From positions 1,277 to 65,276 of the forward strand of contig JAGALA010000029.1 in assembly GCA_017625935.1 (NCBI GenBank): a DNA stretch of 64,000 nt, read 5' to 3'. Shown piece after piece: positions 9,555 through 38,043 of the stretch. A program made the translations under genes and the position numbers. The notes under the pieces were generated by a model. It saw nothing but the letters and a program-made list of their open reading frames with translations, was not told the DNA's origin and made no database searches. This DNA comes from Clostridia bacterium (GTDB taxonomy: Bacteria; Bacillota; Clostridia; Oscillospirales; CAG-272). Within the stretch, counting starts at the first letter, position 1, and each line of letters opens with the position of its first letter.

Positions 9555-9564
9555 AATGTCCTCC

Positions 9565-10554: not shown

Positions 10555-10568
10555 TGTATCACTCCAAA

Positions 10569-13232: not shown

Positions 13233-13275
13233 TTTGTTTTCTCCTTTTTATATGTATGAAATTTTAATAAGCTAT

Positions 13276-14712: not shown

Positions 14713-14782
14713 TATTTCCTCTTTATCTTAGCCACGCCAAGCGCCGCTTGGGCGCTTTGACGTTAGCATTTAATTACTATCC

Positions 14783-17700: not shown

Positions 17701-20700
17701 AGATTGTACCCTTAAGGTTACAGCCGTGGAATGCTTCCTTATTGATGAGCTGAACATATTCAAGTCCCTCTACCCTTGAAAGACGTGAGCAGCCGTAGAA
17801 CGCGCCGTACTCAATTGCCTCAAGTGTTGATGGAAGAACTACTGTTTCAAGAGCGGTAAGGTTTGCAAATGCGTATGCATTAATCTTCTTTACGCCCTCG
17901 GGGATTACTACCTTTGTGATTGCGTTGTCACCTATGTACCAGAGCTTTGAGGTGCTTGGGTCATCAGGGTCAAGCTCCCACGGCTCCTTTGGAATATATT
18001 CACTGTTTGAGAATGCGAACTGAGCAATTTCAACGAGCAAAAGCTCCTCGGGAATTTCTACAACGCCGCCCTTACCGTAATAGTGTGTAAGGTTTGGTGA
18101 CTGTGTAACGAATGGGTCCTTAACCTCAATTGAAACGGTTTGTGAGTAATATGTGCTCTTTCCGTCGAGCAACACTCTTACCGTAACTGAGGAATAGCCC
18201 TCTGCCTCTGCAACGATGACGCCGTTTTGGTCAATCTTTACAATGCTGTCGTCACTTGATTCAAATTCTACCGTTGTACCGTCGAAGTAAGCATCGAGCT
18301 TATATTTAAGCTGAACAGATTCCGATGGGTACATTGATAAGAAGTAGTTGCCGTTTGCAAATACGCGGCGGTCGCCATCGGCACCGATGTCGCGCTCGGA
18401 GCTATCTACCATATAGTAAGCTCTTATAGTATCGTAGCCTGTCAGAACGAAGCTGTCAACAACAGGCTTATCGAAGTACTGGAAGCCCTCATCATTCTCT
18501 GAAAGAACCGTAACGGCAAATGAGGTTTGCTTGCCTGTTTCGGGGTCCTGCGCCCAGATAAGTGCCTTACCCGGAGCTACTGCAACGAGCTTGTTGTTTA
18601 CAACTCTTACAACCTTTTGGTTGGTTGAGAAGTATGTAAGGAGCTCACCCCACTCGGTGCCCGGACGAACAAGCGGCTTGATGTTATAAAGCTCGTTAGG
18701 GCTGAGGGTAACGCTTGTTTCCTCGAAGTAGAAGTCCTTATACTGGTCCGGTAAATCAACCTCATAGGTTGCGTCGTTAAGCGCGTAGTCATACGTTGCA
18801 ACAACTATTGAGTTTGGATTTGCCGCATTGTTTTTAATTTCGTAAACGTAGTCGGTAAGCTCATATTCGATATATGAAATGCCGTTTCTAACCGAGTAGA
18901 TAGGTGTCATATATTGGTTGAACGCAACGAACTCGTAGCTTGCTTTGTCAACGTAGCCGAGCTGAGCCGCCATTGAGTAGTGGTTATCGTAAATCGCCAT
19001 TCTGATGTAGAGGCGGTCGCGCTCAAGCTCCTTGTCGTACTCTGTGTAGTACTCACACTCGGTCAAGGTCGGTGCCTCAAAGTCTGTAACGAATGGGAAT
19101 TCAAAGGTGTTATTCAGGTTATCCTCGATGCCGTCGTTTTCGTAGTCAAGGTAACCAACGCATTTTACGTAGTATTCTGTGTTGTTTTTGAGGTTATGCT
19201 CGTTTACATCGAACTCAACGTCAACGTTTGCGGGATAGAGGTACGAGCCGCCGTCACCGTAGGACTTACGAACGAGCTTTTCTGTCGTTTCGTAAACAAC
19301 CTCGCCTGTTGTTGAATCGGTAATTGTAACCTTTATTTCGCTCGCGTTACGGAGCATACCCATCCAGATAAATCTGATTGAGTGAATTGTGCCGTCCATA
19401 TTGGAAAGGGCAATATAATCGCGGCTTGCCGCAATAATTCTGTCTCTTGGATTTTGAACGAAGTAGTATGAGCCGAGATAGCTAACATAGTCCTCCTCAA
19501 TTCCGCCGATAGGACGTGATGCATATGCATCGGGAAGTGTTTTGTCAAGTGTTGGGATTGTATCGTCAAGCTCGTCACGGTTTGTTTCGAAATAGTCCAT
19601 ATCGAAGAGTGGAGCTTGTGCCCAGTTGCCGTAGAATGCAAGGTAAGGAACGCTTAAATCAACTGCGTTGCCTGTTGTGTCAAGAAGTGTAACAAAGCCC
19701 TCGATGTACATACCGTTTTCAAAGGACTTGTCAAGATATGCTTTGTTCTCGTCGGTAAGCTTGATTGTAACTGTAACCTTAGCGGTTGAATTCGGGTCAA
19801 CCTTAACCTCGTCGCCAACCTTTTTGCCGCCGCCCGAAACTGTAAATTCAACGGTTGCACCCTCGAGAAGGTAGCCCTCCTCGGTAACCGTTGTTTCACC
19901 CTGGTGGGTCAAAACGTCGCTCACGCCCTCGGTCATAACCGATGCGTCAAGGATGTATGAAAGTGAGCTGTCACCGAAGTTTACAACGTCGAAGCTTAAA
20001 GTATATACGCCTGTTTTCTTTGCATCGTCGCCGAGCTCAAGCTTGGTTTTATCCATAACCGAGCCGTCCTTGTTGTAGGTGCGGATGTATGCTTCTGTTT
20101 CTGACGCTGCGATAAGGTTTGCAAGACCTGCGCCCTGCTTTCTAACCGCATACGGTAAGCCGTTTTTGTTGTAAATGATATCGGCGGTTGACATCATAAG
20201 GCGGTTAACCATTGCGTTAACGTTTACCGAACGCTTATATTCGTTTGTTTCGCCGTCGCCGATAATTCTATCGTAGTTAACCTCTACGTATTGACGAAGA
20301 AGGATTGTAAAGCCCGCAAGGTTCGGACAAGCCATTGAGGTGCCCGAAAGACGGTCATAACCGCCGCCCGTTACGGATGAGAGAATGTTGCCGCCGTGAG
20401 CGGTAATCTCGGGCTTAATGCCGAGTGTCGGTGAGGGTCCCCACGAGGAGAAGTCGGACATAAACGGTCCTGACTTTTGTGCACGGCTGATTTTTATCGT
20501 GCCCTTGCCTGCCGCCGCAAGCTCCTTACCGTCGTTTTGTGAGATTGAGCAAACCGCAACGGTTGTAAGACCAACGTTCATTTTGATATCACCCGATACG
20601 TTATTAAAGATGATGATACCTGCCGCGCCCTTCTTTTGCGCTACGTTTGCTTTTTCCTCAAAGGTGTTTGAGCCACGCTCAACGAGAACAATTTTACCTG

Positions 20701-22177
20701 CAACGTCCATACCCGTATAGTCGGCATCACGGCCCGCACCGGGGATTAAAACGTATTCGTATTCCTGCTCGTCAACGCCGTCGGGAAGCAAATCCTCAAC
20801 GAAATCTCTTTCCTCAGCGCCTGCGTTGTTTGATTCAACAAAATAAATGATTTTGCCGTTGTGGAGAATATAAGGTGTTTTAACACCGTTGATTGATGCA
20901 ACGGACATAGCGCCCTCGTAGGTTGAGGGTGAGCCTACTGTTGATGTGTCGGGGTTTGAGGTAAGACCTAAGTTACCGTTCTTCTCCGAGCCGTATGCCG
21001 AGGAGAAGCTGTTTGATGCGGCAACAATCATACTAATGCCCTGCTCACGAATGCTATCGTAAACACCGCTCATCACTTCCTTGTCACTTTCACGGCTGAA
21101 GCCGCAGGCAGTACCAAGGGACATATTAATAACGTCAACGTTGAGAACCACGCAATCCTCAAGTGCGTCAAGAATCCAAGATGCCTTAGCGGAATCCTGA
21201 ATATCGGAGAAAATCTTCATTGAAACGAGCTGTGCATTCGGTGCAACGCCCGTTATAGTATCGTCCTTACCGACGATAACGCCCGAAACGTGCGTACCGT
21301 GGTTATTATGTAAGGAATAAACGTCCGCGTCTCTGTCCGCGTAGTCAAACGAGAAAGGAACCTTGTCGTTTAGATAAACGTCGTTAACGGTCAAGCCGTT
21401 TACCATTGTATTAGCCTTTGTTCTTGCAAGGCAGGCTGATACCATTTCTCTTGTAAGACCGAGCTTTGCTCTGTCCGCGGTGAAGTTATTCACAGAAAAT
21501 GCGGAGTGTGTGTAGTCAAGACCTGTGTCAAGAACCGCAACAACCATTCCCGTGCCGTCATAGTCATAGCCTGCGCTATTAAAGATACCCGTTGTCTCGT
21601 CAACGTTAACCTTGTTTTCAACAAGCTTTGTTTCGCTGACGTTGTAAACCTCACTTACAACAGCGGTTGCGTAGCTTGGGAAGGATTTTGCGGTTGACTC
21701 AAAGTCACGCGCGTTAATTACAACCTCAAAGCCGGCAAGAAGCACTGTGTAGTCAGCACCCAATTCGTAGCTGATGCCCTTTTTGTCAAGCTTGGATGTG
21801 ATTTCTCGCTTTGCGTATTCAATGCCTGCTGTGATGTCAGATGCCTCGTCTGTCAAAATAAAGTCCGCAAAGGAAACGTCTCTCTCCTCCTCGTTGTATG
21901 CATCAAGGAGTGATTTTACGTTAAGCTGAACGATAACGGAAATTTCGTCGTTATCCTTAACTGTGGAGGGGAGCTTTTGAATAGCCGTGCCTGCGTAGTA
22001 TTGAGTCTTATCAATCTTGAGGTCGGAAAGCTCTCTGAAAAAGCCCTCAATTGCTCCGTCACCTACTACATCTTGCGCATTTGCAATTGTGCAGGAGGTC
22101 AAGGAAAGAGCTGTCGAGAGTAACAGTATAACCGATACTACCAAGACTGCTATTCTTGCTAAATTCTTTCTTTTCAT
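14783..22177 (-). CDS. Giant (2464 aa) cell-envelope subtilisin-like S8 protease with PA insert, Big_2-like domains, about 775 aa of BspA-type LRR and a C-terminal TM anchor
   Basis: The catalytic triad is readable: D216 (VVAVLDTG), H293 (HGTHVSG) and S614 (SGTSMACP, codon at 20336-20338). PA-like KIVLVERGSNTFEEKA...GAAGIIIFNN is present. LRR units follow the AFxxCxxLxxVxIP pattern. There is a signal/lipobox SLTSC, and no LPXTG. Confidence 0.9.
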   Translation of the reverse strand: MKRKNLARIAVLVVSVILLLSTALSLTSCTIANAQDVVGDGAIEGFFRELSDLKIDKTQYYAGTAIQKLPSTVKDNDEISVIVQLNVKSLLDAYNEEERDVSFADFILTDEASDITAGIEYAKREITSKLDKKGISYELGADYTVLLAGFEVVINARDFESTAKSFPSYATAVVSEVYNVSETKLVENKVNVDETTGIFNSAGYDYDGTGMVVAVLDTGLDYTHSAFSVNNFTADRAKLGLTREMVSACLARTKANTMVNGLTVNDVYLNDKVPFSFDYADRDADVYSLHNNHGTHVSGVIVGKDDTITGVAPNAQLVSMKIFSDIQDSAKASWILDALEDCVVLNVDVINMSLGTACGFSRESDKEVMSGVYDSIREQGISMIVAASNSFSSAYGSEKNGNLGLTSNPDTSTVGSPSTYEGAMSVASINGVKTPYILHNGKIIYFVESNNAGAEERDFVEDLLPDGVDEQEYEYVLIPGAGRDADYTGMDVAGKIVLVERGSNTFEEKANVAQKKGAAGIIIFNNVSGDIKMNVGLTTVAVCSISQNDGKELAAAGKGTIKISRAQKSGPFMSDFSSWGPSPTLGIKPEITAHGGNILSSVTGGGYDRLSGTSMACPNLAGFTILLRQYVEVNYDRIIGDGETNEYKRSVNVNAMVNRLMMSTADIIYNKNGLPYAVRKQGAGLANLIAASETEAYIRTYNKDGSVMDKTKLELGDDAKKTGVYTLSFDVVNFGDSSLSYILDASVMTEGVSDVLTHQGETTVTEEGYLLEGATVEFTVSGGGKKVGDEVKVDPNSTAKVTVTIKLTDENKAYLDKSFENGMYIEGFVTLLDTTGNAVDLSVPYLAFYGNWAQAPLFDMDYFETNRDELDDTIPTLDKTLPDAYASRPIGGIEEDYVSYLGSYYFVQNPRDRIIAASRDYIALSNMDGTIHSIRFIWMGMLRNASEIKVTITDSTTGEVVYETTEKLVRKSYGDGGSYLYPANVDVEFDVNEHNLKNNTEYYVKCVGYLDYENDGIEDNLNNTFEFPFVTDFEAPTLTECEYYTEYDKELERDRLYIRMAIYDNHYSMAAQLGYVDKASYEFVAFNQYMTPIYSVRNGISYIEYELTDYVYEIKNNAANPNSIVVATYDYALNDATYEVDLPDQYKDFYFEETSVTLSPNELYNIKPLVRPGTEWGELLTYFSTNQKVVRVVNNKLVAVAPGKALIWAQDPETGKQTSFAVTVLSENDEGFQYFDKPVVDSFVLTGYDTIRAYYMVDSSERDIGADGDRRVFANGNYFLSMYPSESVQLKYKLDAYFDGTTVEFESSDDSIVKIDQNGVIVAEAEGYSSVTVRVLLDGKSTYYSQTVSIEVKDPFVTQSPNLTHYYGKGGVVEIPEELLLVEIAQFAFSNSEYIPKEPWELDPDDPSTSKLWYIGDNAITKVVIPEGVKKINAYAFANLTALETVVLPSTLEAIEYGAFYGCSRLSRVEGLEYVQLINKEAFHGCNLKGTISLDNACAIGDYAFANNGQLVDSNGDGTPDTRKCNLEGVILPEKLQSIGAYAFSGNTELKEVTVKAEKVKYGPYVFSGCRALESISMNADVIPEGAFYGCSNLTDVTIGKDVNAIGAVAFARTKISQFKLDSENTSYKLSKDGDYILSSDGKTLIMVAPTVKGSFTLNDANVKTIGIGAFAYSTEITEVNIPSVTVVEDNAFENCTRLDKINLGTLEKIGKYAFFKTSINELPTLNNIKEIGAYAFAYTDLVSVEIPAGMKVGEGAFCECKYLEEVVIGENVELGMGAFMLSRNENSELVRDETVTDKKVYYYKYLSSLTELTIGDGVTVGDSAFMGAAALEKVTMGKNIKLGAQAFFSACSLKEIDLSGVISIGDSAFGGDILYTYTDANGNSPLVEDNYYVYRYYTPKIEKIDLSSLEYLGKEAFINCFELGTVTLGESLKEISERAFEGCKKLTFINLENVEVIGAQAFAEAALVTVDLSDAIYIDSYAFVNNYNLILVTLNSEGTDIGEGAFAYCEGLGKVVNLDVTEKIDAYAFAYTGINKADLSGAIEIGDFAFMKENVTDFELTLGESISVLGDNPFAMCKIAPFSSEVTEEFNGVSYVETVYTYDISDTVKVIDGSLYAVVPSGYELITYCDMGAKMATVAEGTVRITAMAFAGSDVVRVTLPHSLDAIGHKAFYDCDKLVTVVFKSYEAPILEEEFDTTYYESFENLPATGEYDFTDYEGNVITHTGLGIVPFYMWNVSDGKYSNVYYGANFVNRIGHGNPELIMVRPSNGQYYETFIYSQYFTMIIDGAVAMDDITLEAIEAINSLPEKVQLSHESLVIAAREAYNRIATKEQQALVDNYSSLVSAENRILALKSQNMTPDTPNEPDDNVQGGDTDVKDKSNTGYVIAIVALAITTVLNLAVACVAVAGVAVLLVKIFSMRNASLASASEPICEEKAEEAEPTKAEAEISENEDAITDTEENK
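14920..15025 (-). other. C-terminal transmembrane anchor of the giant protease, followed by an acidic tail of about 45 aa
   Basis: GYVIAIVALAITTVLNLAVACVAVAGVAVLLVKIF, then SMRNASLASASEPICEEKAEEAE... Confidence 0.7.
15625..17950 (-). other. BspA-type leucine-rich repeat block within the giant protease (about aa 1410-2185)
   Basis: Dozens of 22-25-aa units such as IPEGVKKINAYAFANLTALETVVLPSTLEAIEYGAFYGC. Boundaries are approximate. Confidence 0.7.
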
Positions 22178-22530: not shown

Positions 22531-22816
22531 GGACGTCGAGGGCACGGGGTTCCCCGAACCGAAGTATGAGGTTTGGGGGTTCTCGGACACCGTCGCAAAC
22601 GGATTGTCGAGGACGTCGTCGCAAACGGGTCGTCGAGGACGTCGCAAAACGGGGCGTCGAGGACGTCGCCCCCTACGGATAAATCAACGCGAGCGTTGTA
22701 TATCATCAATGCACCGCATTGCATATCATCACACGAGAGTGTGTATATCATCAACCGCAGGTTGTATGAAATCACGCCCTGCGTGCATAAAAATCCTCGG
22801 GGGAGTGTCTGTTTTT
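22531..22816. repeat. Family-A modular intergenic repeat, copy R1
   Basis: It shares a 49-nt identical module (22543-22591 = 44417-44465), GTCGCAAACGGGTCGTCGAGGAC units (three in tandem at 22592-22664), a TATATCAT hairpin array and a terminal GGGAGTGTCTGTTTTT with copies at 44373-44699 and 45693-45868. Confidence 0.75.
22685..22785. repeat. Phased array of five mini-hairpins (period 21-23 nt) inside R1
   Basis: The stems are CAACG/CGTTG, CAATGC/GCATTG, CACAC/GTGTG, CAACC/GGTTG and CACGC/GCGTG. They are separated by 8-nt linkers TATATCAT, CATATCAT, TATATCAT and TATGAAAT. Confidence 0.7.
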
Positions 22817-23001
22817 GGCACTTTTCCCTTCAAAATCGCATCTTTGTTTTTTGCACAATGCAATTAGCGTGCCGCATCTTTTTATGGCGCTTTTTTGATT
22901 GGCTTTCGATGCCACTTACGCGCGTGCCCATTTTTTTCTTGACATATTATTTTTTATATGATACAATTATGGGTGAGAAAAATATTTATCAAGGAGTATA
23001 T

Positions 23002-23814
23002 ATGCAAGAGAAAAAAACGAAAATTTTGCACCTTATATACGGGATTGTGCTTTCCGTTTTGATCTTTGCGGTTGGCATTTGCTTTATTGTCAGCTGTGTT
23101 GATATAAACAACGCGGGAAAGTTCACCGTTGATGCTATAAAAACGCACTTTTTGTGGATCCTTGCCCCTGTGCTTCTCTGTATTTTTTCTATCATAGGCG
23201 GCGCGGTATTGCACGCAGTTTTCCCACCGTCCGAGGAAAAAATCAAAGCATCGATGTCAAATAAGGACCTCATCAAAAATCTTTACAAAAAAATCGACCT
23301 TGACGCAGCACCTGCGGAGTTAAAGGCGGTTATTAAAAGCCAACGCGGCTTCAGACTCGCATTTTTTATCGTAATGATTGTAAACGCGGTTATCAATTTT
23401 GTTTCCGCATTTGTTTTCATTTTTACAAAAAGTAATCTCGGCGATGTTGACCCAGGCAAGCTGAATGAAATTTTGCCCGTTATCGGCAAGATTTTGGCTT
23501 ACGCCATTATTCCGTTCTTCGTTGCTGTAATTTATGATATCTTTTCAAGCTACACCTACGAAAGAGAGCTTGAGGCGGTAAGAGCCATTATGGAAAGCCA
23601 AACGAAGAAGCGTAAAAAGGGTGAGCTTAATTTGCCCGAGGAGAAAAAGGTGTGCTTCTTTAAAAGACATTCAAAGAAATTTATTTTAGCGCTTCAAATT
23701 ACACTCGGTGTTGTCGCCGCCGCGTTTATTATCGTAGGTATAATAACGGGCGACATCAAAAATGTTCTCACATATGCAAATAACATTTGCACAGGCTGTA
23801 TCGGTCTTGGTTAA
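23002..23814 (+). CDS. Polytopic membrane protein ending in a CxxC tail (…NNICTGCIGLG)
   Basis: ATG at 23002 preceded by AAGGAG. Several TM segments. It ends 9 nt before the next gene. The upstream part of ORF 22573-23814 crosses repeat R1 and is rejected. Confidence 0.65.
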   Translation: MQEKKTKILHLIYGIVLSVLIFAVGICFIVSCVDINNAGKFTVDAIKTHFLWILAPVLLCIFSIIGGAVLHAVFPPSEEKIKASMSNKDLIKNLYKKIDLDAAPAELKAVIKSQRGFRLAFFIVMIVNAVINFVSAFVFIFTKSNLGDVDPGKLNEILPVIGKILAYAIIPFFVAVIYDIFSSYTYERELEAVRAIMESQTKKRKKGELNLPEEKKVCFFKRHSKKFILALQITLGVVAAAFIIVGIITGDIKNVLTYANNICTGCIGLG

Positions 23815-23823
23815 GGAGGTAGT

Positions 23824-25596
23824 ATGGAAAATAAAGAGCTTTTAGAAAACACCTCACTTAACGAAGCGACAGAAAGCGTTGACGCGCCAAAAGAAGCTAC
23901 TCTTGCCGACTTAATCGGCGGTGAGGATGAGTCATTTAACGCCAAATTTGCGACACAGGGTGAGCAAAAACCCGAAAATGACGGTAAAAATGTACCGACT
24001 GATGAGCCTAAGAAAAAACGCTCCTTCAAGTCTTGGCTTTACAGTATAATTCCGACGAAAAGGCGCATAGTTCAGCTATACTCCGCGCTTCTTTTCAATG
24101 CAAACCTAAAGGGCTACATTCAGGGCAATATGTTTGTTGGACAGTCAAAGTTTATTTGCTCCCCGGGCATTAACTGTTACTCCTGTCCCGGTGCTATCGG
24201 CACGTGTCCGCTCGGTGCACTTCAAAACGAGCTTGGCAACAAGCGCATGCCGTTTTATATTCTCGGAATTTTGTTCCTTTACGGCTTGATGCTTGGCAGA
24301 ACGATTTGCGGCTGGCTTTGCCCGTTCGGTCTTTTCCAGGATTTGATTTACAAAATCAAGACTCCGAAATTAAAAAAGAACGGTGTTACCCGTGCTTTAT
24401 CGTATCTTAAATATGTAATTTTAGCAGTTTTTGTCTTTGTGCTTGCCGGCTTCGGCGTTTTCCCCGCATTTTGTAAATACATATGCCCCGCAGGCATTTT
24501 AGAGGGTGCGTTTGGAATCTTGCCACTCGACACCGACCTGCTCAGCGGCATCGGCTCGCTCTTCACCTGGAAATTCGTTTTGTTCGTTTCCATTGTTGTT
24601 TTTTGTATTTTTGCATACCGTGCATTCTGCCGTTTCATTTGCCCACTCGGTGCAATTTACTCGCTTTTCAACCGCTTTTCATTCTTTGGAATCAAATTAA
24701 ACCGCGACAAGTGTACGAAATGCGGCAAATGTATCACAAAATGTAAGCTTGATATCAAGCACGTTGGTGACCAGGAGTGTATCAGCTGCGGCGAATGTAT
24801 CGACGTTTGTCCGACAAAGGCAATTTCATTCAAGGGACCTAAGATTTTCTTAGCACCTAACGAAATCAGCATCCCCAAGGACGCAAGCGACGAGGAGCGC
24901 GCAGAGCTGAGGGCAACGCAGGAGCGCGAAAACGCAATAATCAAGAAAAAGAACCGCACAAGAAAAATTATCATTGGCTCGGTTATGGGCGCTGTGCTTC
25001 TTTCTGTGCTTCTCTACTTTAACGTAATTAAAAACGAGCAGCTTTGGAACAACCTTTTAGGCGATAAGCCACCTGTAACAACTGATACAAACACAGACGG
25101 CGAAAATAACGTAACCGTTGGCACAAGCGTCGGCAACAAGCTGCCAAGTGCATCACTTGAAATCTTTGACGAAAACGGTCCTTCGGGTGAGTTCGTTGAC
25201 CCATTGGTTGGCGGAAGCGGCAAGGTAACCGTTATTAACTTCTGGGGCACCTGGTGTCCACCCTGTGTCGCTGAATTGCCACACTTTGGTGAGGTTGCAA
25301 GCGAATACAAGGACTCGGTTGTGATTTATGCAGTCCACTCGGTTGACGGCTTTGAAACCGCACCGCAGCACGTAAATGATAATCACAAGGATTCCGCGCT
25401 TATTTTCTTAAAGGATACCCGTCCAAGCGACGATGCCCCCGTAGATGACTACTTCAAGCTGACCACGGGCAAGGGCTTCCCTATGTATCCTTGGACTATA
25501 GTGCTTGACGAAAACGGCGTTATCACATATTCAACCTATGCCGCAATCGAAAAGGACGTATTAATTGCGGAAATTCAAAAGGCGATGAATAATTAA
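23824..25596 (+). CDS. NapH/CcoG-like membrane polyferredoxin (COG0348-type) fused to a C-terminal TlpA/ResA-like thioredoxin domain
   Basis: CYSCPG; three LCP(F/A/L)G-type motifs (CGWLCPFG, CKYICPAG, CRFICPLG); two ferredoxin motifs (CTKCGKCITKC and CISCGECIDVCP). An extra TM follows, then WGTWCPPC in a redoxin-like domain of about 150 aa. Confidence 0.85.
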   Translation: MENKELLENTSLNEATESVDAPKEATLADLIGGEDESFNAKFATQGEQKPENDGKNVPTDEPKKKRSFKSWLYSIIPTKRRIVQLYSALLFNANLKGYIQGNMFVGQSKFICSPGINCYSCPGAIGTCPLGALQNELGNKRMPFYILGILFLYGLMLGRTICGWLCPFGLFQDLIYKIKTPKLKKNGVTRALSYLKYVILAVFVFVLAGFGVFPAFCKYICPAGILEGAFGILPLDTDLLSGIGSLFTWKFVLFVSIVVFCIFAYRAFCRFICPLGAIYSLFNRFSFFGIKLNRDKCTKCGKCITKCKLDIKHVGDQECISCGECIDVCPTKAISFKGPKIFLAPNEISIPKDASDEERAELRATQERENAIIKKKNRTRKIIIGSVMGAVLLSVLLYFNVIKNEQLWNNLLGDKPPVTTDTNTDGENNVTVGTSVGNKLPSASLEIFDENGPSGEFVDPLVGGSGKVTVINFWGTWCPPCVAELPHFGEVASEYKDSVVIYAVHSVDGFETAPQHVNDNHKDSALIFLKDTRPSDDAPVDDYFKLTTGKGFPMYPWTIVLDENGVITYSTYAAIEKDVLIAEIQKAMNN

Positions 25597-25604: not shown

Positions 25605-25633
25605 GAGAGAGCAAAATTGCTCTCTCTTTTTTT
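25605..25633 (+). terminator. Intrinsic terminator after the polyferredoxin-thioredoxin gene
   Basis: GAGAGAGC ... GCTCTCTC followed by TTTTTTT. Confidence 0.7.
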
Positions 25634-25678
25634 GCAAAATATGATGTTTTTTAGACACGTATAGGCACAAAATGGATT

Positions 25679-25706
25679 AAAAAGGCACTCAAGCGAGTGC
25701 CTTTTT
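25679..25706 (-). terminator. Intrinsic terminator after the 705-aa lipoprotein gene
   Basis: AAAAAGGCACTC-AAGC-GAGTGCCTTTTT; the T-run falls on the minus-strand reading. Confidence 0.7.
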
Positions 25707-25715
25707 GTATTGATT

Positions 25716-27833
25716 TTATTCTTCAATTTGCGGTGCAACGTAAGTAAGATTTACAGTTCCGCCGCCTTGGCAGGTAACCTTAATCAAAACTCTTGTCGTT
25801 GTGCCGTAGTCGGAAGCAAGAACGTATGAAAGGTTATCACCTGTTAAGGTTGCTTGAAGTGTTGGCTCGCCGTCGCCCGATCTTGTATAAATTTCAACAG
25901 CTGCGCTTGCGTTATCAACCGTGATGGTCGCGCCTGTTAAGTAGAACAAGGTGTACCAAACCTCTTTTCCGTCCTCAACTCTTACCTCGGTTGTATTGTT
26001 TTCACTATCCGCGTCAACGAGGAACGGGTAAAGTGCGCTACCGTCGCGCTTGTGTGTTACGTAAACAACGGCTGTTGTTTCATCACCGAACGGTGTGTAC
26101 TCGTTCACGGTTTCGTACTCCTCGCCGTAGCTTGCCTTAATGAAATATTTTGCGGTTTCGGTAAGCTCACCGAAGTTAACCGCGCCGTTTTCGTCACTTG
26201 TGTACGTACCCTTAAGCTCATATTCGTTGCCGTTTAGGTAGTAAAGCTCAACTGTAACGCCTGCTTTGCTCTCATTTTCAACCTTTACGGTTGCGGAATA
26301 CTCTGCCTTGGACTCACCAAAGGTAAGTGAGGCTGAAATTTCCGCCTCGGGATTTGTCACGCTTTCGCCCGAAAGCTTTTCGGTGAAGAAGCAAATTACA
26401 ACCACGTCACCAGCCTCAACGGACTTCTTAAATCTAACGCCGTTAATTGAAATTACCGCATTTTCGGTATCTGTTGTTACCTTAACTGTGCCTGCCTTGT
26501 CTGCAACGAAGGAGTAATAATATCTTTCACCCTCGCCAAGCTTAACGCCCTCAAAGGTATAGTCCTTGTCAACCTCAATCTCCTCGGGAGTTTTGAGTGA
26601 GCCGAGCTTGTAAATTTCGCCTGTAACATTAACCTCGGACTCGGACTTAACGTCAATTCTGAACACAGCCTCGCCCTTTTCCTTAAGCTCAAAGAGGATA
26701 ACGCCGTTTTGTGGCTTGCGCTTAACGCCATTATAGAACGCTTCAACCGCATCGCTTGTTATCTCAACGGTCTTTCCCTGCGCGTTTGGCACGCTGTACC
26801 AAAGCTGAGCGCCGCCCGCTTGTGTAATATCAATATTGCCCGCGATCATAATCGGGTGATCCTTGTCGGAGCCCGGGACAACGTCCTCGCAAAGCATTTC
26901 GGCTTCTACCGCGCCGTTTTTCTCAACGCTCACTGCTTTTACGTATTTGCCGTCAACCGATGCTACGATATAGTAGGTTCCGTTCTTAAGTGAAGCGGTT
27001 GCACTTCCGTTTTCGTCTGTTTCAGCCTCGCCCACAACTAAAAAGTCTTCATTATAAAACATAACGGTAGCGCCCGAAACGGCTGCGCCGCTTGCGTCCT
27101 TAATTACCGCTGTGTAATCAATTGATGTATCAAGAACAACGAACTGAATTTGTGCGTTTTTGCTGTTTTCAAATGAAACAACGTCTGTGTCGTTAACAAG
27201 TGTAAACGCGCCGTTTCCGTACGCGTGGCTAACTTTCGCGTAGTATTTGTCGGGATTTACAATAAAGGTAACTCGTCCGTTTGCTTCGGTAACTGCGCTT
27301 TCTACAAGCTCGTCACCCTCCTCCTTGTAAAGCTCAACCAAGATGTTTGCAAGGCGGTTGCCGTGAAGATCCGATGCGGTAACCGTATAGGTTTCGTTTT
27401 GCTGGATTGTAACAACGCGTGAGGTTTTTCCTTCGGGGAATGGAATGTAGCCCTCGGGCTTAATAAATCCGCTCGGAACCGAGTTTACTTGTATCTCAAG
27501 TGCGGCAATTTCCGTGTATTGGAACTTGCAAACGCCCTCTGCATCCGAGGTTTTCGGAGGTAAGCAGAAGCCGCCGGGGAGGCAAACCTGCGCGTTTATG
27601 CCCTCGATTGGTTGTCCGTTTTGGTTTTGGAAGTAAACTGTGTAGATAACAGGATCGTTTTCCGTGTTGCCTGTATCCGTGCTTGTGTCGCTACTGCCCG
27701 TATCTGTATTTGTGTTTGTATTGGTATTAGTGTCTGTGCCACCGTCATTTCCGCAGGAAGCGAAAGCAAGCGTGCAGGCAAGCACCGTAACAAGCACAAG
27801 GGCAAGAACTAAAATTTTTCTTGTGAGTTTCAT
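25716..27833 (-). CDS. Lipoprotein paralog 1 (705 aa) with a Thr/Asp/Asn linker and repeated Ig-like/prealbumin-like modules
   Basis: Lipobox AFASC, then GNDGGTDTNTNTNTNTDTGSSDTSTDTGN. Repeated modules follow, such as YTVTASDLHGNRLANILVELY and YTAVIKDASGAAVSGATVMFY. Confidence 0.8.
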   Translation of the reverse strand: MKLTRKILVLALVLVTVLACTLAFASCGNDGGTDTNTNTNTNTDTGSSDTSTDTGNTENDPVIYTVYFQNQNGQPIEGINAQVCLPGGFCLPPKTSDAEGVCKFQYTEIAALEIQVNSVPSGFIKPEGYIPFPEGKTSRVVTIQQNETYTVTASDLHGNRLANILVELYKEEGDELVESAVTEANGRVTFIVNPDKYYAKVSHAYGNGAFTLVNDTDVVSFENSKNAQIQFVVLDTSIDYTAVIKDASGAAVSGATVMFYNEDFLVVGEAETDENGSATASLKNGTYYIVASVDGKYVKAVSVEKNGAVEAEMLCEDVVPGSDKDHPIMIAGNIDITQAGGAQLWYSVPNAQGKTVEITSDAVEAFYNGVKRKPQNGVILFELKEKGEAVFRIDVKSESEVNVTGEIYKLGSLKTPEEIEVDKDYTFEGVKLGEGERYYYSFVADKAGTVKVTTDTENAVISINGVRFKKSVEAGDVVVICFFTEKLSGESVTNPEAEISASLTFGESKAEYSATVKVENESKAGVTVELYYLNGNEYELKGTYTSDENGAVNFGELTETAKYFIKASYGEEYETVNEYTPFGDETTAVVYVTHKRDGSALYPFLVDADSENNTTEVRVEDGKEVWYTLFYLTGATITVDNASAAVEIYTRSGDGEPTLQATLTGDNLSYVLASDYGTTTRVLIKVTCQGGGTVNLTYVAPQIEE

Positions 27834-27894
27834 ATTTTCTCCTTGTTATAAATGTGGTTTGATATTAGATATTCCGTCTTATTTAAGCCCTCAT

Positions 27895-29514
27895 TTATTC
27901 AATAAAGGTTGTGTATGTGATTTTTGCATCCACCCTCGTCTCGCCTGTGTTAACAAGCTCAAACTCTATAAGTGAAATGCCGTCAAAGCTGATTTCGATA
28001 ACGCCTTTTTCGTTCGATGTATATTCCACGCCGTTAAAAATAACCTTGAGTCCGTCAGCCTCGCTGATTGTAAGCGTCGTTCTTGTCAAGCGTGCACCCT
28101 TGAAATAAAGCGTTGCGCCGCCGTCAAGTGCAGCAAGCATTTCCTTTGGCTCGGTTGTATCGGTTAAGGTAATGCGCTTGTCGGCTGATGTGCCGCTATT
28201 GTTTGCTTCAAGATAGCAGCAAGCAAAGTACGGTGCGTTTTCAATTGGCACCTCAAGTTTTGTACCCTCGATAACCGTGCCGTCATCCTCGCTGCCCGCG
28301 CCAACCGTAAATATTGTGCGATCGCCCTCGAACCAGCCGCTGTGCTTGCCTATATTTGTTACCGCATAAAGAAGCTCGCGAGTTAGCGGAACGACGCCCG
28401 TGTCGTCGCATTTTTCCGCATAGGTGAGGAACATATTATTGTAAATCTCGGTGCGCAAAAGCTTTCCGTCTTCACCGTAAATTGAGCCGTAGAGTGCCGC
28501 AGTTTCGCAAATTTCGGAGAACGGAGCTATATATTTGCTTGCACTTGTGATTCGCATAAGCACAACGGGACCGTTTTCATCTCCCAAATGGAAGAAGCCG
28601 TCCTGCGCGCTATACACAATAGATAAGTCCTTATCCGTTATATCAACGTCAACGAGGTTGGCGTTTAGGTATGAATAAACGCATTTTTCGCTTGGATACT
28701 CAATAGGTAAATAATCGATTTTAGGTGTTTCCGCCGTCGGATCGGATACGCGCTCGACGGTTAAAATACAGGAGTCAACGACGAGTGAGCGCACACCGAT
28801 AATAATTCGTGTAGTACCCGTAAAGCCGCTTGAAACGCCCGAATCCTTAACCTCAATTTCAAATGCTCTGTCCTTAATTTCTACGCTGCTTTGTTCAAAA
28901 ACGTAATGCTCGCTTCCGCCAAAGTAGCCAATTGTCAAGGCAACGTCGGAGATGTAGCTGAATTTATATACGCCGCCGCGTGTAGGCTCGAAAACGTAGT
29001 AGGTCATACCGTCAATATCTACAAGGGTTGCGCCCTCTTCGACAAATTTAGCGCGGTATTCGTATCTCTCTCCGCTTTCACTATCGTACGGATACATTGT
29101 GAATTCGCGATCGCCAAGCTCGGAATAAAGCATAATTTCCTTCGTGGGATTTTTCTCCGTAAGAACACAGCTTTCCTTGTCGTAGGTAACCGTTTCGTCG
29201 GTCAAAACAAGCTCGAAGGTGTATTCACCCTTTTCAAGTTTGAAGCTTGCCTCACCGTCCTTATTTGACTTTTTCATTGAGCCAAGCTCCTCTCCGTCCT
29301 TATAAAGCTGAACGAAAAGTCCTGAGGAAACAGGTGCGCCCGTGTAGTCCACAACCTTTACGGTATAGACAATTTCACTTGACCCCGTGTCCGTATTTGT
29401 GTCGCTGTTTGTGTTTGTTTCAGTACCGCCGCCGTTTCCCGAGCAGGAGGCAAAAAGCATACACAGGGTGAGCAAAAGCACTGCTATAAGTGCTGTAAAT
29501 ATTTTATTTTTCAT
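27895..29514 (-). CDS. Lipoprotein paralog 2 (539 aa)
   Basis: Lipobox LFASC, then GGGTETNTNSDTNTDTGSS, then YTVKVVDYTGAPVSSGLFVQLYKDGEE. The C-terminal part resembles segments of the 1101-aa paralog. Confidence 0.8.
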   Translation of the reverse strand: MKNKIFTALIAVLLLTLCMLFASCSGNGGGTETNTNSDTNTDTGSSEIVYTVKVVDYTGAPVSSGLFVQLYKDGEELGSMKKSNKDGEASFKLEKGEYTFELVLTDETVTYDKESCVLTEKNPTKEIMLYSELGDREFTMYPYDSESGERYEYRAKFVEEGATLVDIDGMTYYVFEPTRGGVYKFSYISDVALTIGYFGGSEHYVFEQSSVEIKDRAFEIEVKDSGVSSGFTGTTRIIIGVRSLVVDSCILTVERVSDPTAETPKIDYLPIEYPSEKCVYSYLNANLVDVDITDKDLSIVYSAQDGFFHLGDENGPVVLMRITSASKYIAPFSEICETAALYGSIYGEDGKLLRTEIYNNMFLTYAEKCDDTGVVPLTRELLYAVTNIGKHSGWFEGDRTIFTVGAGSEDDGTVIEGTKLEVPIENAPYFACCYLEANNSGTSADKRITLTDTTEPKEMLAALDGGATLYFKGARLTRTTLTISEADGLKVIFNGVEYTSNEKGVIEISFDGISLIEFELVNTGETRVDAKITYTTFIE

Positions 29515-29598
29515 CTTTTTTCTCTATTTTTCAAAAGGAGCGCCGCGTGTGCGACGGCTCCCTTGAATGCTTTTCAAATTTTTTCGGTAATGCTTAAA

Positions 29599-32500
29599 TT
29601 ACTGTCCGAGATACTCGTAGTAGTAGCAAAGCTTTGTCCAAGAATGCTCAACACCCTCAAAGGTGAACTTATCCATAAGCATCTGAAGTGCCTCTGCAAG
29701 CTCCTTGGTAACTGCGACACAGCCCTGACGCTCAACGTCTTCGGTATCGCTGTTGTGCACAAGCTCCGCATATTTCTTGATAAGCGCGGTATAGTCCGGT
29801 GCGGGAACTGCGTTCTTCGGAATTTCCTGAAGCACCATTGTTGTCTCGCCTGTCAATTCGTCAGTTACGTACTCGTAGCCGAAGGACTTATAAACGCCGT
29901 CAACGTAGTAGCCGTGGTATTTTTCCTCAAGAATATCGTCAATTTGATAATACTTGTAGTTATGCTCGTAGTCAGCGCCCCACGCATCCTTGAGTCCGTC
30001 CAAGCCGTATCTGTCAAGATAAGCTATTGCCATTTGGTCAACCTCGGTAATTGCGAAGTTGAATGCGCCAATGTCGCAAAGCATCTTGATTGACTGTGTG
30101 GTGAAGATTGACGTTGTCTGATAGAAGTCGGCATAAACGATTGAGCCAAGCTCGCCGTTTGCCTTTAAGTGGTGGTAGTAGCCGTCCTCGCCGAGTTTAA
30201 CGTCGATACCGCCCGCGATGGTGTCACCCATTGCGCCGCCAACGCCCTCCTCGTAGGTAAATACTCCCGGAGATGCCGCGATGAAGTTGTCATACGTTTC
30301 GCCAAGGTATTTTACGTCAAAGGTGAATTTACCGTATTGATATTGGTCATAGTAAGCAAAGTCGATATAGTATTCCTCGCCCGCCTTCATATAAGCAACC
30401 ATAGATGCGTTTGTAAAGTCACGCTCGTACGTGCCGTCTCCGTCGGGGTCGATAAGAAGCTCTGTGCAGAAGCGCTCGCCTGTGTCGGAGTGCGTATAAA
30501 GAATTCTGTCGCCTGTTTCTATCCAGCTATCGTGGCCACCGATGAAGATCCAGCCGTTTACCTCATAATCACTGTTTGTTGTGAAGCGGTAAACGCCGTC
30601 CTTTGTTGGAACGAACTTATAAAGAAGACCTCTTGGCATAATTACTCTGTTGTATTCAACGAGGTTCGGTGCGTCCTCCTTTACCTCGTATGCGCTGAAT
30701 GATGCAAGTCCCTTAATTGGGTCGATGAGCTGTGCGCCGTTTGTGCCGTATGCATCGTAGTATGAGCAGAGCGTGAGCCATTGGTTAGGGTTACCCTCGC
30801 CAACGCCGATGTATTGGTCAACGAATGCTTCGAGATATTTTCTAAGTGTAGGAGTAACGGAGCAAAGATTGTAGATTTGTGAGTTGGATGCGTAGTTACA
30901 GTACTTAATTAAGTCGCTGTAATAGTTAACGCCGTCTATGAAAAACTCCTTGGTTTCGCTGATTTCAAGAGTAATGCTGTAATCATTTGAGAAGTTTGTA
31001 TAGCCGATGAGGTTTGCAAGAAGGATTGGACCTGTCTCGGAGCCAACGTGATAATAGCCGTCTGCGCCCAAGAAAACCTCAACGTAATTTTCGTAGTCAC
31101 TGCCGTACTCGTTTAGGTTGGTTGCGGCATCACGCGGAATAAAGGTTTCAACGTCAACCGCTTCCTTGTCAACAACGCGGAAGTTGGAGAGGTAAACAGC
31201 ATCGTCTCCGTCATAGTCTGCGTAGTCCTTGTTGTAAACGAATGCAACGTCATACAAGCCGTCCTCGGTTGCAACCCATGGGCAGCAGCCCTGCCAATTG
31301 TTGTCCTCACCTGAAATTGTGTAAATATCCTGTCCGTTAACCAAAACGTAAAGCACGTCGTAGCCGTACTGCGTTGAGGTTAAGTAATCGAACATAATTG
31401 CCTCGCCAGCCTTAAGCTCTACCTTTGCGTGAAGCGTTGCAAATGAGGTGTCCTGGTCGTAGTTTGATGGCTTAACGCACACTACGCCGTTCTTTTCGGT
31501 GATAACGAAGGGCCAAGAATAATCCCAGTCTGATGTTTCGGTTTCGGGCAAGAACTCAATGCTTGCGCCGTCCTTATTAAGAGCCTCGTTATATTCCTCG
31601 TTTGAGGGCGCCTCCTCGGTCGGCTTAACGGTCGGAGTCAATTCGCCAATGCCGTTAAAGAGGTTTTGTGTATAATCCTTAACCGAGTAGTAGTTAAAGA
31701 GTGCATCGAAATACTTTTCGTTTGGAATACCGCCCTGGTGCATAAAGGAAATCATACCGTAACGGTCGATAACTATCGTTACAGGGTTACCTGTAATGCC
31801 GAAGCAGGACTCGATGTCGTTTTCGTCCTTAATCATAGGAAGATTGAGTGCAAATGCTTTATAAAGGTCGTCCTTTGCGTTTGCAAAAACAGCATTAAGC
31901 GCTGTTTCGTCTGTTACGTCAACCGATTTGAGCGCTTCCGCAAATGAAGCAAGCGCACGCTTTACGTTTGAGTCGTCCTCTTGCAAAATAGCAGCTTCGA
32001 TAGCGCTTGCTACTGCCTGTGCCTGCGCTGCTACGTCATCTGCCTCCAAAATGAGAACCAAGGTGCTATCAAAGCCCTCGTCAATCTTTTGTTGGCTGAG
32101 AACCTCGTAGGAAATGCCCTTACCTATTGCATTTGTCAGCTCGTTTCCGACAAGTGATGCGCGCAATGTTGTGAAATCGTTATATGCGTAGTGGAAGCTG
32201 TTCTTAAATCTTTCAACGTCAGAAATTGAGTCACCGCCGAGCTTGCCGTTCAAGGCAAAGAGCGCGATAACGTCCGAATACTTAGCGTATGAAGCCTCCA
32301 TATCGGGGAATTCCTCGATACAGTAGTTACAGGTTGTGAACCAGAAGTTAAGAACAATTGCCTTCTTCTCCTCTAAAAGCTCGGAGAAGGAAACGGTTTG
32401 TCCGTTATAGTTAATCTTGTAGTCGTGAATGATATCACCAAGCTCGTATCGAGCGCCGCCTGAGCTGCCGCTTATCGGTGCGGAGGTGAGAGTAATTGTC

Positions 32501-32904
32501 GCGCCTGTTGTACCCATTGGGTAAGAATCCTCAACTATGTAGCCCTCGGGATAGTCCTCAAGAGAGATTGTATAGCCGTCTGCACGTGGAAGGGTGAGCG
32601 TAACGCTACCTTGATAGTTGGTAGTGCCGATGCCTTCCTTTTTGATGTTACCCTCAGCGTCGGCAACGTAAACCTTAACGCCCTCGAGTGCCATACCGCC
32701 GATCGATTTAACGTTTACCGTATAACCAACCTTATCGGCGTTTTGGTTGCCTGTATTGGTATCAGACGAACCTGTGTCGGTGTTGGTATTTGTGTTGGTG
32801 CTTGTGTCGGTGTTATCGGGTCCGCAAGCAACGAGCTGCATAACAACCGTTAAAACCATAACAAGAGCCAAAACAAAGGATAAAATTCTTTTTTTGTTTG
32901 CCAT
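29599..32904 (-). CDS. Lipoprotein paralog 3 (1101 aa) with an embedded TlpA-like thioredoxin fold (CNYC)
   Basis: Lipobox QLVAC, then TDTSTNTNTNTDTGSSDTNTGN, then YTVNVKSIGGMALEGVKVYV. KKAIVLNFWFTTCNYCIEEFP has Cys192/Cys195 (codons at about 32320-32331), and GNPVTIVIDRYGMISFMHQG closes the fold. Confidence 0.8.
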   Translation of the reverse strand: MANKKRILSFVLALVMVLTVVMQLVACGPDNTDTSTNTNTNTDTGSSDTNTGNQNADKVGYTVNVKSIGGMALEGVKVYVADAEGNIKKEGIGTTNYQGSVTLTLPRADGYTISLEDYPEGYIVEDSYPMGTTGATITLTSAPISGSSGGARYELGDIIHDYKINYNGQTVSFSELLEEKKAIVLNFWFTTCNYCIEEFPDMEASYAKYSDVIALFALNGKLGGDSISDVERFKNSFHYAYNDFTTLRASLVGNELTNAIGKGISYEVLSQQKIDEGFDSTLVLILEADDVAAQAQAVASAIEAAILQEDDSNVKRALASFAEALKSVDVTDETALNAVFANAKDDLYKAFALNLPMIKDENDIESCFGITGNPVTIVIDRYGMISFMHQGGIPNEKYFDALFNYYSVKDYTQNLFNGIGELTPTVKPTEEAPSNEEYNEALNKDGASIEFLPETETSDWDYSWPFVITEKNGVVCVKPSNYDQDTSFATLHAKVELKAGEAIMFDYLTSTQYGYDVLYVLVNGQDIYTISGEDNNWQGCCPWVATEDGLYDVAFVYNKDYADYDGDDAVYLSNFRVVDKEAVDVETFIPRDAATNLNEYGSDYENYVEVFLGADGYYHVGSETGPILLANLIGYTNFSNDYSITLEISETKEFFIDGVNYYSDLIKYCNYASNSQIYNLCSVTPTLRKYLEAFVDQYIGVGEGNPNQWLTLCSYYDAYGTNGAQLIDPIKGLASFSAYEVKEDAPNLVEYNRVIMPRGLLYKFVPTKDGVYRFTTNSDYEVNGWIFIGGHDSWIETGDRILYTHSDTGERFCTELLIDPDGDGTYERDFTNASMVAYMKAGEEYYIDFAYYDQYQYGKFTFDVKYLGETYDNFIAASPGVFTYEEGVGGAMGDTIAGGIDVKLGEDGYYHHLKANGELGSIVYADFYQTTSIFTTQSIKMLCDIGAFNFAITEVDQMAIAYLDRYGLDGLKDAWGADYEHNYKYYQIDDILEEKYHGYYVDGVYKSFGYEYVTDELTGETTMVLQEIPKNAVPAPDYTALIKKYAELVHNSDTEDVERQGCVAVTKELAEALQMLMDKFTFEGVEHSWTKLCYYYEYLGQ

Positions 32905-38012: not shown

Positions 38013-38043
38013 CAAAAAACACAATATATTGTAAAAAATATAT

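Follow-up and report, generated by a model that had tools for sequence, protein, structure and literature searches.

A two-gene operon of gut Clostridia encoding a NapH-like polyferredoxin fused to a TlpA-like thioredoxin and a CxxC-tailed membrane partner: a candidate envelope-reducing system

Structure of the locus

The analyzed stretch of DNA (the window) comprises 64,000 nucleotides (nt) of a Clostridia bacterium of CAG-272 (assembly GCA_017625935.1, contig JAGALA010000029.1, positions 1,277 to 65,276 of the forward strand). It carries two co-directional genes, encoding (i) a 270-amino acid (aa) protein with five predicted transmembrane (TM) helices and a CxxC motif in its C-terminal tail, referred to below as the partner (23002-23814), and (ii) a 590-aa fusion protein (23824-25596), composed of an acidic N-terminal extension, a NapH-like membrane module, two [4Fe-4S] motifs, a further TM helix (TM5) and a TlpA-like thioredoxin domain. 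Both genes, and all of their features described below, are located on the plus strand. Scanning GTDB with one genome for each species revealed the fusion architecture at 583 or more loci, of which 80, each from a different species, were examined. We lean, with modest confidence, toward the view that the two gene products would form a membrane complex bringing cytoplasmic reducing equivalents to an extracytoplasmic thioredoxin, i.e., a NapH-type analog of the CcdA/DsbD and TlpA/ResA systems.

The partner gene, which most likely starts with the ATG at position 23002, has an AAGGAG ribosome-binding site, and a promoter-like sequence (TTGACA-17-TACAAT with a TG-extended -10 element; 22939-22967) is placed ~35 nt upstream of it; this is the best site in the region, a consensus match only, with 11 of 12 consensus positions. 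The fusion gene, with a GGAGG ribosome-binding site, begins 9 nt after the partner stop codon. A terminator-like hairpin with a T-run (25605-25626) lies directly downstream of the fusion stop codon, and a second, bidirectional terminator-like hairpin is found at 25678-25707, so that the pair looks like a self-contained two-gene operon. Neither the complete window nor the intergenic region upstream of the operon gave a match in Rfam, and no riboswitch or leader was detected. As the original prediction had pointed out, the window lacks ccdA/dsbD: no DsbD/CcdA match (PF02683) was obtained for either protein or for any window open reading frame (ORF) of at least 120 aa.

The NapH-like module and the ferredoxin domain

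The membrane module of the fusion protein (residues 76-285; 24049-24678) is matched in two stretches by Pfam Fer4_5 (PF12801; 64 bits vs. a cut-off of 22). It is followed by two ferredoxin-type [4Fe-4S] motifs of the CxxCxxCxxxC form at residues 297-307 (C297/300/303/307) and 319-329 (C319/322/325/329), which are predicted to be cytoplasmic (24691-24843) and are recognized by Fer4 (twice, above the cut-off) and Fer4_7. Models of specific families score lower: TIGR02163 (NapH/MauN) matches residues 148-337 with 86.6 bits (cut-off 213.05), NF007013 gives 65.5 bits (cut-off 234), the NosR model matches the membrane part alone (44 bits vs. 1000), and TIGR02745 (CcoG) reaches 26.2 bits (cut-off 316.7). 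No match to FMN_bind (Pfam) was found in the fusion protein. The domain order originally proposed, a NapH-like polyferredoxin followed by an extra TM helix and a TlpA-like thioredoxin, is confirmed by the Pfam matches and by translation, which places the cysteine motifs at residues 118-123 (CYSCPG), 162-169 (CGWLCPFG), 217-224 (CKYICPAG) and 269-276 (CRFICPLG).

These four motifs had been listed together, but the comparison with NapH shows that they are not equivalent. An alignment with NapH of Escherichia coli MG1655 (22% identity) extends over nearly the full length of the module, and the cysteines kept in it are C162/C166, C269/C273 and the eight ferredoxin cysteines, with no others. Thus, CX3CP motif 1 (C162/C166; 24307-24324) at the inner end of TM2 and CX3CP motif 2 (C269/C273; 24628-24645), invariant and placed at the inner end of TM4, are the two canonical inner-face motifs common to NapH. 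CYSCPG and CKYICPAG belong to a set of six extra near-invariant cysteines predicted on the outer face. Four of these (C112, C118, C121 and C128) form a Cys-rich loop, CSPGINCYSCPGAIGTC, between TM1 and TM2 (24157-24207), predicted to be at the outer face or buried in the membrane; opposite its C-x5-C-x2-C-P-x6-C-P pattern E. coli NapH has a gap. The other two (C217 and C221) constitute an extra CX3CP motif at the outer end of TM3 (24472-24489), where the C-K-Y-I-C-P of the window protein is replaced in NapH by W-E-W-I-N-P. In a set of 35 relatives, 22 cysteines do not vary, and a larger set of 118 sequences, reaching down to 35% identity, either retains each of them without exception or conserves it to at least 90%. 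This applies to the Cys-rich loop, whose cysteines are invariant in the smaller set and at least 90% conserved in the larger one; in the larger set C221 is invariant and C217 at least 90% conserved.

An AlphaFold2 model of residues 76-349, built from the 118-sequence alignment, has a predicted local distance difference test score (pLDDT) of 91.6 and a predicted TM-score (pTM) of 0.88; in this model TM2, TM3 and TM4 are each followed by a short helix bearing a CX3CP motif. Foldseek comparison of the module model with the PDB returned 47 matches, which are confined to 2x[4Fe-4S] domains of ~60 residues (E about 0.1). No solved structure matched the membrane bundle, either by Foldseek or by a PDB sequence-profile search, and the 47 matches include no chain of DsbD, CcdA, DsbB or VKOR, a comparison that is negative rather than informative.

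NapH of E. coli and of Wolinella succinogenes, where it is part of the NapGH quinol dehydrogenase, resembles the module in its four TM helices, of which TM2 and TM4 each have a CX3CP motif at the inner end, and in a cytoplasmic 2x[4Fe-4S] domain at the C-terminus. It differs in that the window protein has six extra outer cysteines, TM5 and a thioredoxin domain, that a CxxC protein takes the place of the periplasmic NapG as partner, and that no nap genes are nearby: neither a molybdopterin oxidoreductase gene nor a NapG-like gene was found in the window or among the recurrent neighbors of the 80 loci. The module is therefore, as judged from its score below the model cut-off, its extra cysteines and its context without nap genes, NapH-like and not NapH. 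NapH and RdhC have been proposed as quinol-oxidizing modules (PMC5928378, PMC3475470), and the window protein might likewise act as a NapH-type quinol dehydrogenase, drawing electrons from membrane menaquinol and using its cytoplasmic Fe-S domain as an auxiliary. We consider this distinctly unlikely, given that all eight ferredoxin cysteines are invariant and that the neighborhood contains no quinone-related genes. Menaquinol (~-70 mV) is also a poor reductant for dithiols of the TlpA/ResA type (~-250 mV or lower).

Another relative within COG0348 is the cupric reductase CcoG/YccM, whose polytopic chain has motifs of the CX3C type and two [4Fe-4S] clusters in the cytoplasm, and for which two Cu-binding sites and cupric reductase activity have been reported (PMC7558416). 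The module could be a CcoG-like metal reductase or metal handler, or have another redox role, while the TlpA-like domain, reduced by a CcdA encoded elsewhere, would ready the thiol ligands of metalloproteins or chaperones, as TlpA does for Sco/CoxB. The weak CcoG match, the resemblance of the Cys4 loop (by sequence) to a metal knuckle and an HMA P-type ATPase gene adjoining one relative (locus L081) are in line with this, yet we rate it as rather improbable. The match is far below the cut-off; the immunoglobulin (Ig)-like domain and the cbb3 context of CcoG are missing (no cbb3 oxidase genes occur in the window), and the output domain here is a thioredoxin. Moreover, metal-transport genes are not conserved neighbors in the 80 loci, the 64-kb window encodes no CcdA, and the fusion, the fission and the constant presence of the CxxC partner, described below, point to direct coupling of the three parts.

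The thioredoxin domain

The thioredoxin domain (25111-25593), which in the preferred reading would receive reducing equivalents from the membrane module, is of the TlpA/ResA/CcmG type, with WCPPC at residues 477-481 (25252-25266), Glu484, Pro486 and a cis-Pro loop P556-x-T558; WCPPCVAELP and P556-x-T558 are invariant in the 35 relatives. Redoxin (39.6 bits vs. a cut-off of 26.6) and AhpC-TSA match above their cut-offs, and Redoxin, AhpC-TSA and Thioredoxin all map to residues 462-575. The NCBIfam equivalog models remain far below theirs (ResA 39.7 vs. 170, StoA 38.2 vs. 210, DsbE 36.8 vs. 123, TlpA 28.8 vs. 230). An AlphaFold2 model of the whole fusion protein from a 35-sequence alignment, which has a pLDDT of 40-60 in the membrane and Fe-S part and was used for the thioredoxin domain alone, gives this domain a pLDDT above 90; Foldseek target TM-scores are 0.7-0.85 with ResA, Etrx1/2, CcmG, DsbF and TlpA-like proteins. 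ResA, StoA, CcmG and Etrx are the best matches by both sequence and structure (PDB profile search and Foldseek); among the structural ones, ResA, CcmG and Etrx1/2 are reductases anchored in the membrane. A peroxiredoxin, considered because of the AhpC-TSA match, was rejected, since the site is a TlpA-type WCxxC dithiol and not the peroxidatic PxxxTxxC.

Electrons could also run the opposite way: the outside domain would oxidize thiols like DsbA and pass electrons inward to a cytoplasmic acceptor, making the system an analog of DsbB/VKOR for organisms lacking respiratory quinones. The architecture is symmetrical as to direction, the neighboring surface proteins are Cys-rich (26 cysteines in the S8 protease described below), and DsbF of Mycobacterium tuberculosis, a described oxidant, is among the structural matches. 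However, the active site CxxCxxExP together with the cis-Pro loop P-x-T is the signature of the reducing ResA/CcmG group, which also includes TlpA and supplies the best matches. Among the best 120 relatives the CxxC motif is most often CGPC (39), followed by CGGC (25), CSAC (14), CPPC (13), CPGC (12) and CTPC (11), and never CPHC. In addition, the hosts look strictly anaerobic (the window encodes NrdDG and a flavodiiron protein) and would have little need for oxidative folding, and low-potential Fe-S clusters would be poor electron sinks for thiol oxidation. We regard an oxidative function as unlikely.

The CxxC-tailed partner protein

The partner has predicted TM helices at residues 15-33, 52-70, 123-141, 160-178 and 227-245. 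Its N-terminus is predicted to be inside, and its C-terminal tail, GIITGDIKNVLTYANNICTGCIGLG (23737-23811, with CxxC at 23788-23799), extracytoplasmic; the last 25 residues, ...GDIKNVLTYANNICTGCIGLG, end in ICTGCIGLG. Partner homologs (26-96% identity, ~260-300 aa) contain no Pfam domain. C263, C266, G268 and A259 are present in all of 118 partner sequences, and C32 in 93% of them. A frame-independent motif search showed that in each of the 80 loci the fusion gene is directly preceded, on the same strand, by an ORF whose product ends in C-x-x-C-[IV]-G-[LM]-[GF], a co-occurrence that strongly supports the earlier suggestion that the protein encoded 9 nt upstream is a redox partner.

The tail belongs to a family for which NCBI already has a model (CD1871A, NF040920). 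The window tail fits the 38-residue model (a TM helix end followed by ...DVLxKAxxICTECIGLG) with 24.1 bits, below the cut-off of 32, and the window protein differs from the family in its length (270 aa) and in having five TM helices. All five short relatives tested (40-59 aa) score 42.7-49.7 bits, above the cut-off, and numerous separate proteins of 37-84 aa, made up of a single TM helix and the tail, were recovered with a tail profile. All eight CD1871A-type small ORFs whose context was inspected lie immediately upstream of a NapH-like gene. Since the high-scoring short homologs occupy the same genomic position, the window tail is taken as a divergent member of the CD1871A module, and the partner as its long form with five TM helices, the short form (45-65 aa) having a single one. 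At two loci (L081 and L086) the frame is open for only 58-63 codons, and the short form is therefore genuine. At two others (L085, 3317-4144; L090, 4335-5123) a frame of 260-280 codons is open, of which annotators called the end alone. We found no published function for the CD1871A family in the literature. The CD1871 region of Clostridioides difficile lies within the conjugative transposon CTn5 (PMC3158075, PMC12772354), and no conclusion is drawn from this location.

In public annotations of metagenome-assembled genomes (MAGs), the long partner is reduced to a tiny gene covering only its final 40-52 codons (L085, L090 and L099-L101; in L099-L101 the long form was deduced from an uncalled gap of 800-950 nt upstream), and tiny CxxC proteins are often named "thioredoxin" in NCBI sources. 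The tiny-gene calls look like a systematic mis-annotation of the long partner.

Membrane topology

NapH, a relative that has been studied experimentally, spans the membrane with four helices and carries its Fe-S clusters on the cytoplasmic face (PMC5449189, citing Brondijk 2004). Helix parity and homology to NapH place the TM1-TM2 loop and the end of TM3 of the fusion protein outside, the ferredoxin domain inside and the thioredoxin domain outside. The N-terminus is acidic, variable in length and without a signal peptide. In 118-120 relatives the family-wide net charge of the TM2-TM3 loop is +5.8 and that of the TM3-TM4 loop -1.6. TM5 (residues 382-400; 24967-25023), predicted to run from inside to outside, is strongly hydrophobic (mean hydropathy 2.35), with +3.7 in the 15 residues before it and -1.2 in the 15 residues after it. 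From this charge bias and, independently, from the lipoprotein nature of the thioredoxin in the split operon described below, the thioredoxin domain is predicted to be extracytoplasmic, as was originally proposed. The K/R-rich loops of the partner (residues 71-112 and 179-226) are predicted to be inside, which places its C-terminal tail outside as well. The six outer cysteines and the partner CxxC would together make eight conserved cysteines on the predicted outer side, near the thioredoxin CxxC; we take them as a hint, the strongest at the sequence level, of trans-membrane redox chemistry.

A comparable arrangement is known from the NapH-NapG polyferredoxin of the delta-proteobacterium MLMS-1, in which a NapH part is followed by a fifth TM helix and an outside redox domain (PMC5449189). 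There the fifth helix is Tat (twin-arginine translocation)-dependent, carries a twin arginine and exports a folded Fe-S domain, whereas TM5 of the window protein follows KKKNRTRK, without RR, and would export a cofactor-free thioredoxin fold. Given the strong hydrophobicity of TM5 and the missing twin arginine, Tat dependence was rejected.

Distribution, fusion and fission of the family

An assembly or frameshift artefact joining two genes was considered as a source of the fusion. A split version occurs in other lineages, and some metagenome contigs carry frameshifted copies (L091; P0392, P0397 and P0404). On the other hand, the identical 590-aa protein was found on five independent contigs (one Logan and two ENA assemblies among them), all of which also carry the upstream gene for the 270-aa protein, and the continuous architecture with its conserved TM5 linker is shared by more than 100 protein clusters, besides the loci of the species scan. 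A protein search gave 5092 matches, and in the best 120 of them (45-96% identity, 400-822 aa) the thioredoxin active-site motif is present in 119, which indicates a shared architecture. We consider the probability of an artefact negligible; the fusion is real.

The homologs are annotated only as "4Fe-4S binding protein" or "redoxin family protein" in Clostridia MAGs, and the 80 examined loci are all from gut or rumen Clostridia (Oscillospiraceae, Acutalibacteraceae, Faecousia, Ruminococcus and some Lachnospiraceae). A search with the module only (residues 76-345) against representatives of clusters at 50% identity yielded 7727 matches at E<=1e-3, 2900 at 1e-10 and 399 at 1e-30. Among the best 150 representatives, a thioredoxin domain was found by phmmer in 40 of the 50 proteins of at least 450 aa and in none of the 74 proteins of at most 330 aa; the fused form is thus one branch of a wider family of ~290-aa NapH-like proteins.

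At four loci (L086-L089) the parts are encoded by three overlapping genes, for (i) a 178-aa lipoprotein thioredoxin (MMKRILTALLLVLCLTAGC..., with lipobox LTAGC and active site WCGPCVMEFP), (ii) a 59-aa TM-CxxC peptide, and (iii) a 304-aa NapH-like protein, which ends after the ferredoxin domain and has every cysteine of the window module. As both fused and split versions exist, the three parts are likely to work together (the "Rosetta stone" argument).

Other variants were also observed. Two tandem thioredoxin domains are present in 14 of the 50 long representatives (P0026, P0034, P0049, P0054 and others), and in a few relatives (P0423, P0430, P0433 and P0434) a C-terminal polytopic membrane domain replaces the thioredoxin. 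In one lineage (L091-L093, 1935-3536) the fusion is called as pieces of 107 and 397 aa and the C-terminus of the thioredoxin is degenerate; this copy is probably frameshifted or decaying.

Proposed function and relation to known systems

In the proposed pathway, reduced ferredoxin or flavodoxin, the most likely low-potential donors, would deliver electrons to the two cytoplasmic [4Fe-4S] clusters, from which they would pass to the inner-face CX3CP pairs C162/C166 and C269/C273. The inner pairs would transfer them across the four-helix bundle to the six outer cysteines and the CxxC tail of the partner, and these would in turn reduce the WCPPC of the tethered TlpA-like domain. The latter would keep the cysteines of surface proteins or lipoproteins reduced, maybe via the large lipoproteins with TlpA domains whose genes lie in the neighborhood. 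In this scheme we infer which way electrons flow, which donor and clients take part, and that the outer cysteines act as a thiol-disulfide relay rather than a metal or Fe-S center. A relay is favored because loops inserted by Sec cannot take clusters built in the cytoplasm without Tat, and the protein has no twin-arginine motif. NosR, in which only the iron of its two ferredoxin clusters was found (PMC5928378), counts in the same direction. The Cys4 loop could still be a rubredoxin-like or other metal site.

Several points weigh against this pathway. The family is known from sequence alone, and a CcdA/DsbD could be encoded elsewhere in the genome, the search having covered the 64-kb window. 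We know of no characterized precedent for the transfer of single electrons from Fe-S clusters to a two-electron disulfide couple across a membrane; the nearest chemistry is that of the soluble ferredoxin:thioredoxin reductase. With about +2.75, owing to the invariant K96 and K109 and to basic residues before TM2, the net charge of the Cys-rich loop is in mild conflict with an outside location, and the loop may be partly buried or re-entrant rather than exposed. Whether the CX3CP motifs of NapH, NosR and RdhC are a disulfide or a metal site is undecided (PMC5928378), and CcoG has its two Cu-binding sites beside its two clusters (PMC7558416).

The CcdA/DsbD systems, which serve TlpA, ResA, CcmG, StoA and Etrx, have a similar predicted output, i.e., a membrane-anchored, outward-facing CxxC domain of the TlpA type (target TM-scores ~0.8). 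The membrane part described here is unrelated to theirs and has the thioredoxin fused to it, and its input would be Fe-S clusters, whereas CcdA/DsbD receive electrons from cytoplasmic thioredoxin. The chemistry that the proposed path needs, reduction of a nearby disulfide by a [4Fe-4S] cluster in one-electron steps, is that of ferredoxin:thioredoxin reductase and heterodisulfide reductase; no sequence relationship to these enzymes was detected, and they are soluble or peripheral proteins and not transmembrane relays.

With NosR, PceC (RdhC) and the "NapH-like flavinylated systems" (PMC8238504), the fusion protein has in common the covalent linkage of a NapH-like module to a redox domain outside the membrane, an arrangement proposed as a trans-membrane electron conduit; the function of the CX3CP motifs is unsettled there too (PMC5928378). 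A Fer4_5 match is the definition of "NapH-like" used in PMC8238504. Characteristic of NosR/RdhC-type proteins is an extracytoplasmic FMN (flavin mononucleotide)-binding domain with a [S/T]GA[S/T] flavinylation motif. Their outside domain is N-terminal, FMN-binding and ApbE-dependent, whereas that of the window protein is a C-terminal dithiol thioredoxin fold; the operon encodes neither an FMN-binding domain nor ApbE, and the partner is a CxxC peptide.

The original remark that no characterized example of this fusion was known is supported, as we found no description of a NapH-like/thioredoxin fusion in the literature. As far as our searches show, a thioredoxin as output domain, a CxxC partner dedicated to it and the set of outer cysteines are all undescribed. 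The concept is less isolated than had been assumed, however, since a connection of the cytoplasm or the membrane to outside redox domains through NapH-like proteins has already been proposed for FMN-binding domains (NosR, PceC and the "NapH-like systems"; PMC8238504, PMC5928378) and for a NapG domain (PMC5449189).

There is a substantial chance that the two genes represent a distinct class of envelope-reducing system. The strongest form of this view, which we put forward tentatively, is that they belong to a third, hitherto unrecognized class of transmembrane disulfide-reducing machinery, unrelated to DsbD and CcdA, in which a NapH-like bundle and a CxxC peptide would form a ferredoxin-driven cluster-to-dithiol relay, and that this might be the main envelope-reducing pathway in much of the uncultured gut Clostridia (Oscillospirales and Lachnospirales). 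To our knowledge, every textbook route to extracytoplasmic thioredoxin-like proteins runs via thiol relays of the DsbD/CcdA type fed by cytoplasmic thioredoxin; a ferredoxin-fed Fe-S route would be a mechanistically different answer to envelope reduction. If correct, it would explain how Cys-containing surface proteins, proteases and lipoproteins are protected or matured in strictly anaerobic gut Clostridia. It would also give the CX3CP motifs of NapH and NosR a chemical role and provide a tractable system for a question about twenty years old, namely what these motifs do in NapH, NosR, RdhC and CcoG (PMC5928378). Given the size of the family (399 clusters at 50% identity in the module search at E<=1e-30, in addition to the loci of the species scan), an assigned function would spread widely. 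The annotation itself calls for correction, as the partner peptide is often truncated and labeled "thioredoxin" and the fusion protein is labeled "4Fe-4S binding protein" only.

Genetic neighborhood

The operon is situated between lipoprotein genes. Divergent from it is a gene for a 2464-aa lipoprotein (14783-22177, minus strand) with S8 peptidase, PA, Fn3_5 and BspA-type leucine-rich repeat (LRR) domains and 26 cysteines. This is a conserved neighbor: in 51 of the 80 loci a homolog of the S8-LRR protease (55-69% identity) precedes the fusion gene by ~1.2-1.4 kb. On the other side, the third of three downstream lipoproteins (1101 aa; 29599-32904, minus strand) contains a second TlpA-like domain (CNYC, residues 192-195); this TlpA/ResA-like domain is its only recognizable part, the conserved C-terminal ~750 aa having no family or solved-structure match. 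Lipoproteins with TlpA-like domains (mostly ~930-1220 aa) occur 0.6-7 kb from the fusion gene in 27 of the 80 loci, in 26 of them downstream; similar ones are present in L081 (582 aa) and L090, and in a Blautia relative a gene for a C11 cysteine peptidase adjoins. The neighboring TlpA-domain lipoproteins and surface proteins are candidate clients or relay partners. None of these neighbors is obligatory, because the split operon sits among housekeeping genes.

The three consecutive downstream lipoproteins (25716-32904, minus strand) have in common a lipobox and, after it, a linker rich in Thr, Asn and Asp (TNTNTNTDTGSS type), and the first of them also has Ig domains resembling Big_1 and CarboxypepD_reg. 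The S8-LRR gene is part of an envelope proteolysis and peptide-uptake block (5964-22177, minus strand), together with genes for a 478-aa lipoprotein without a family match, an unusually large family-5 solute-binding protein (887 aa) and OppBCDF-like proteins.

Within the AT-rich intergenic region upstream of the operon there is a GC-rich island (22531-22760), which holds two short direct-repeat arrays. The first consists of four copies of ~25 nt, with the core GTCGAGGACGTCG present three times (22571-22678), and the second of GTTGTATATCATCA repeated three times with a spacing of 22-23 nt (22693-22753). An extra copy of the core is found at 45777-45789, giving four matches vs. 0.03 expected by chance. 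The arrays (22531-22760) have no Rfam match; they may serve as a series of binding sites for a regulator or represent a small repetitive element.

Three further regions of the window were distinguished. A cluster related to anaerobic redox metabolism and oxygen stress (37320-47792) encodes NrdG and NrdD (37320-40631), a thioredoxin-reductase-like flavoprotein (40830-41738) and a flavodiiron/flavin-reductase/rubredoxin fusion (45936-47792, minus strand). The region 48000-57000, with a GC content of 0.36-0.42 at 48-54 kb and a large serine recombinase with DUF4368 (55294-56985, minus strand), may be an integrated mobile element; a gene for a sigma factor of the extracytoplasmic function type (50500-51060) is located nearby. 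Finally, a LexA-like repressor (a helix-turn-helix domain with Peptidase_S24) and a Y-family (impB/mucB) DNA polymerase are encoded consecutively at 2610-4806 on the plus strand, in what looks like an SOS mutagenesis cassette.

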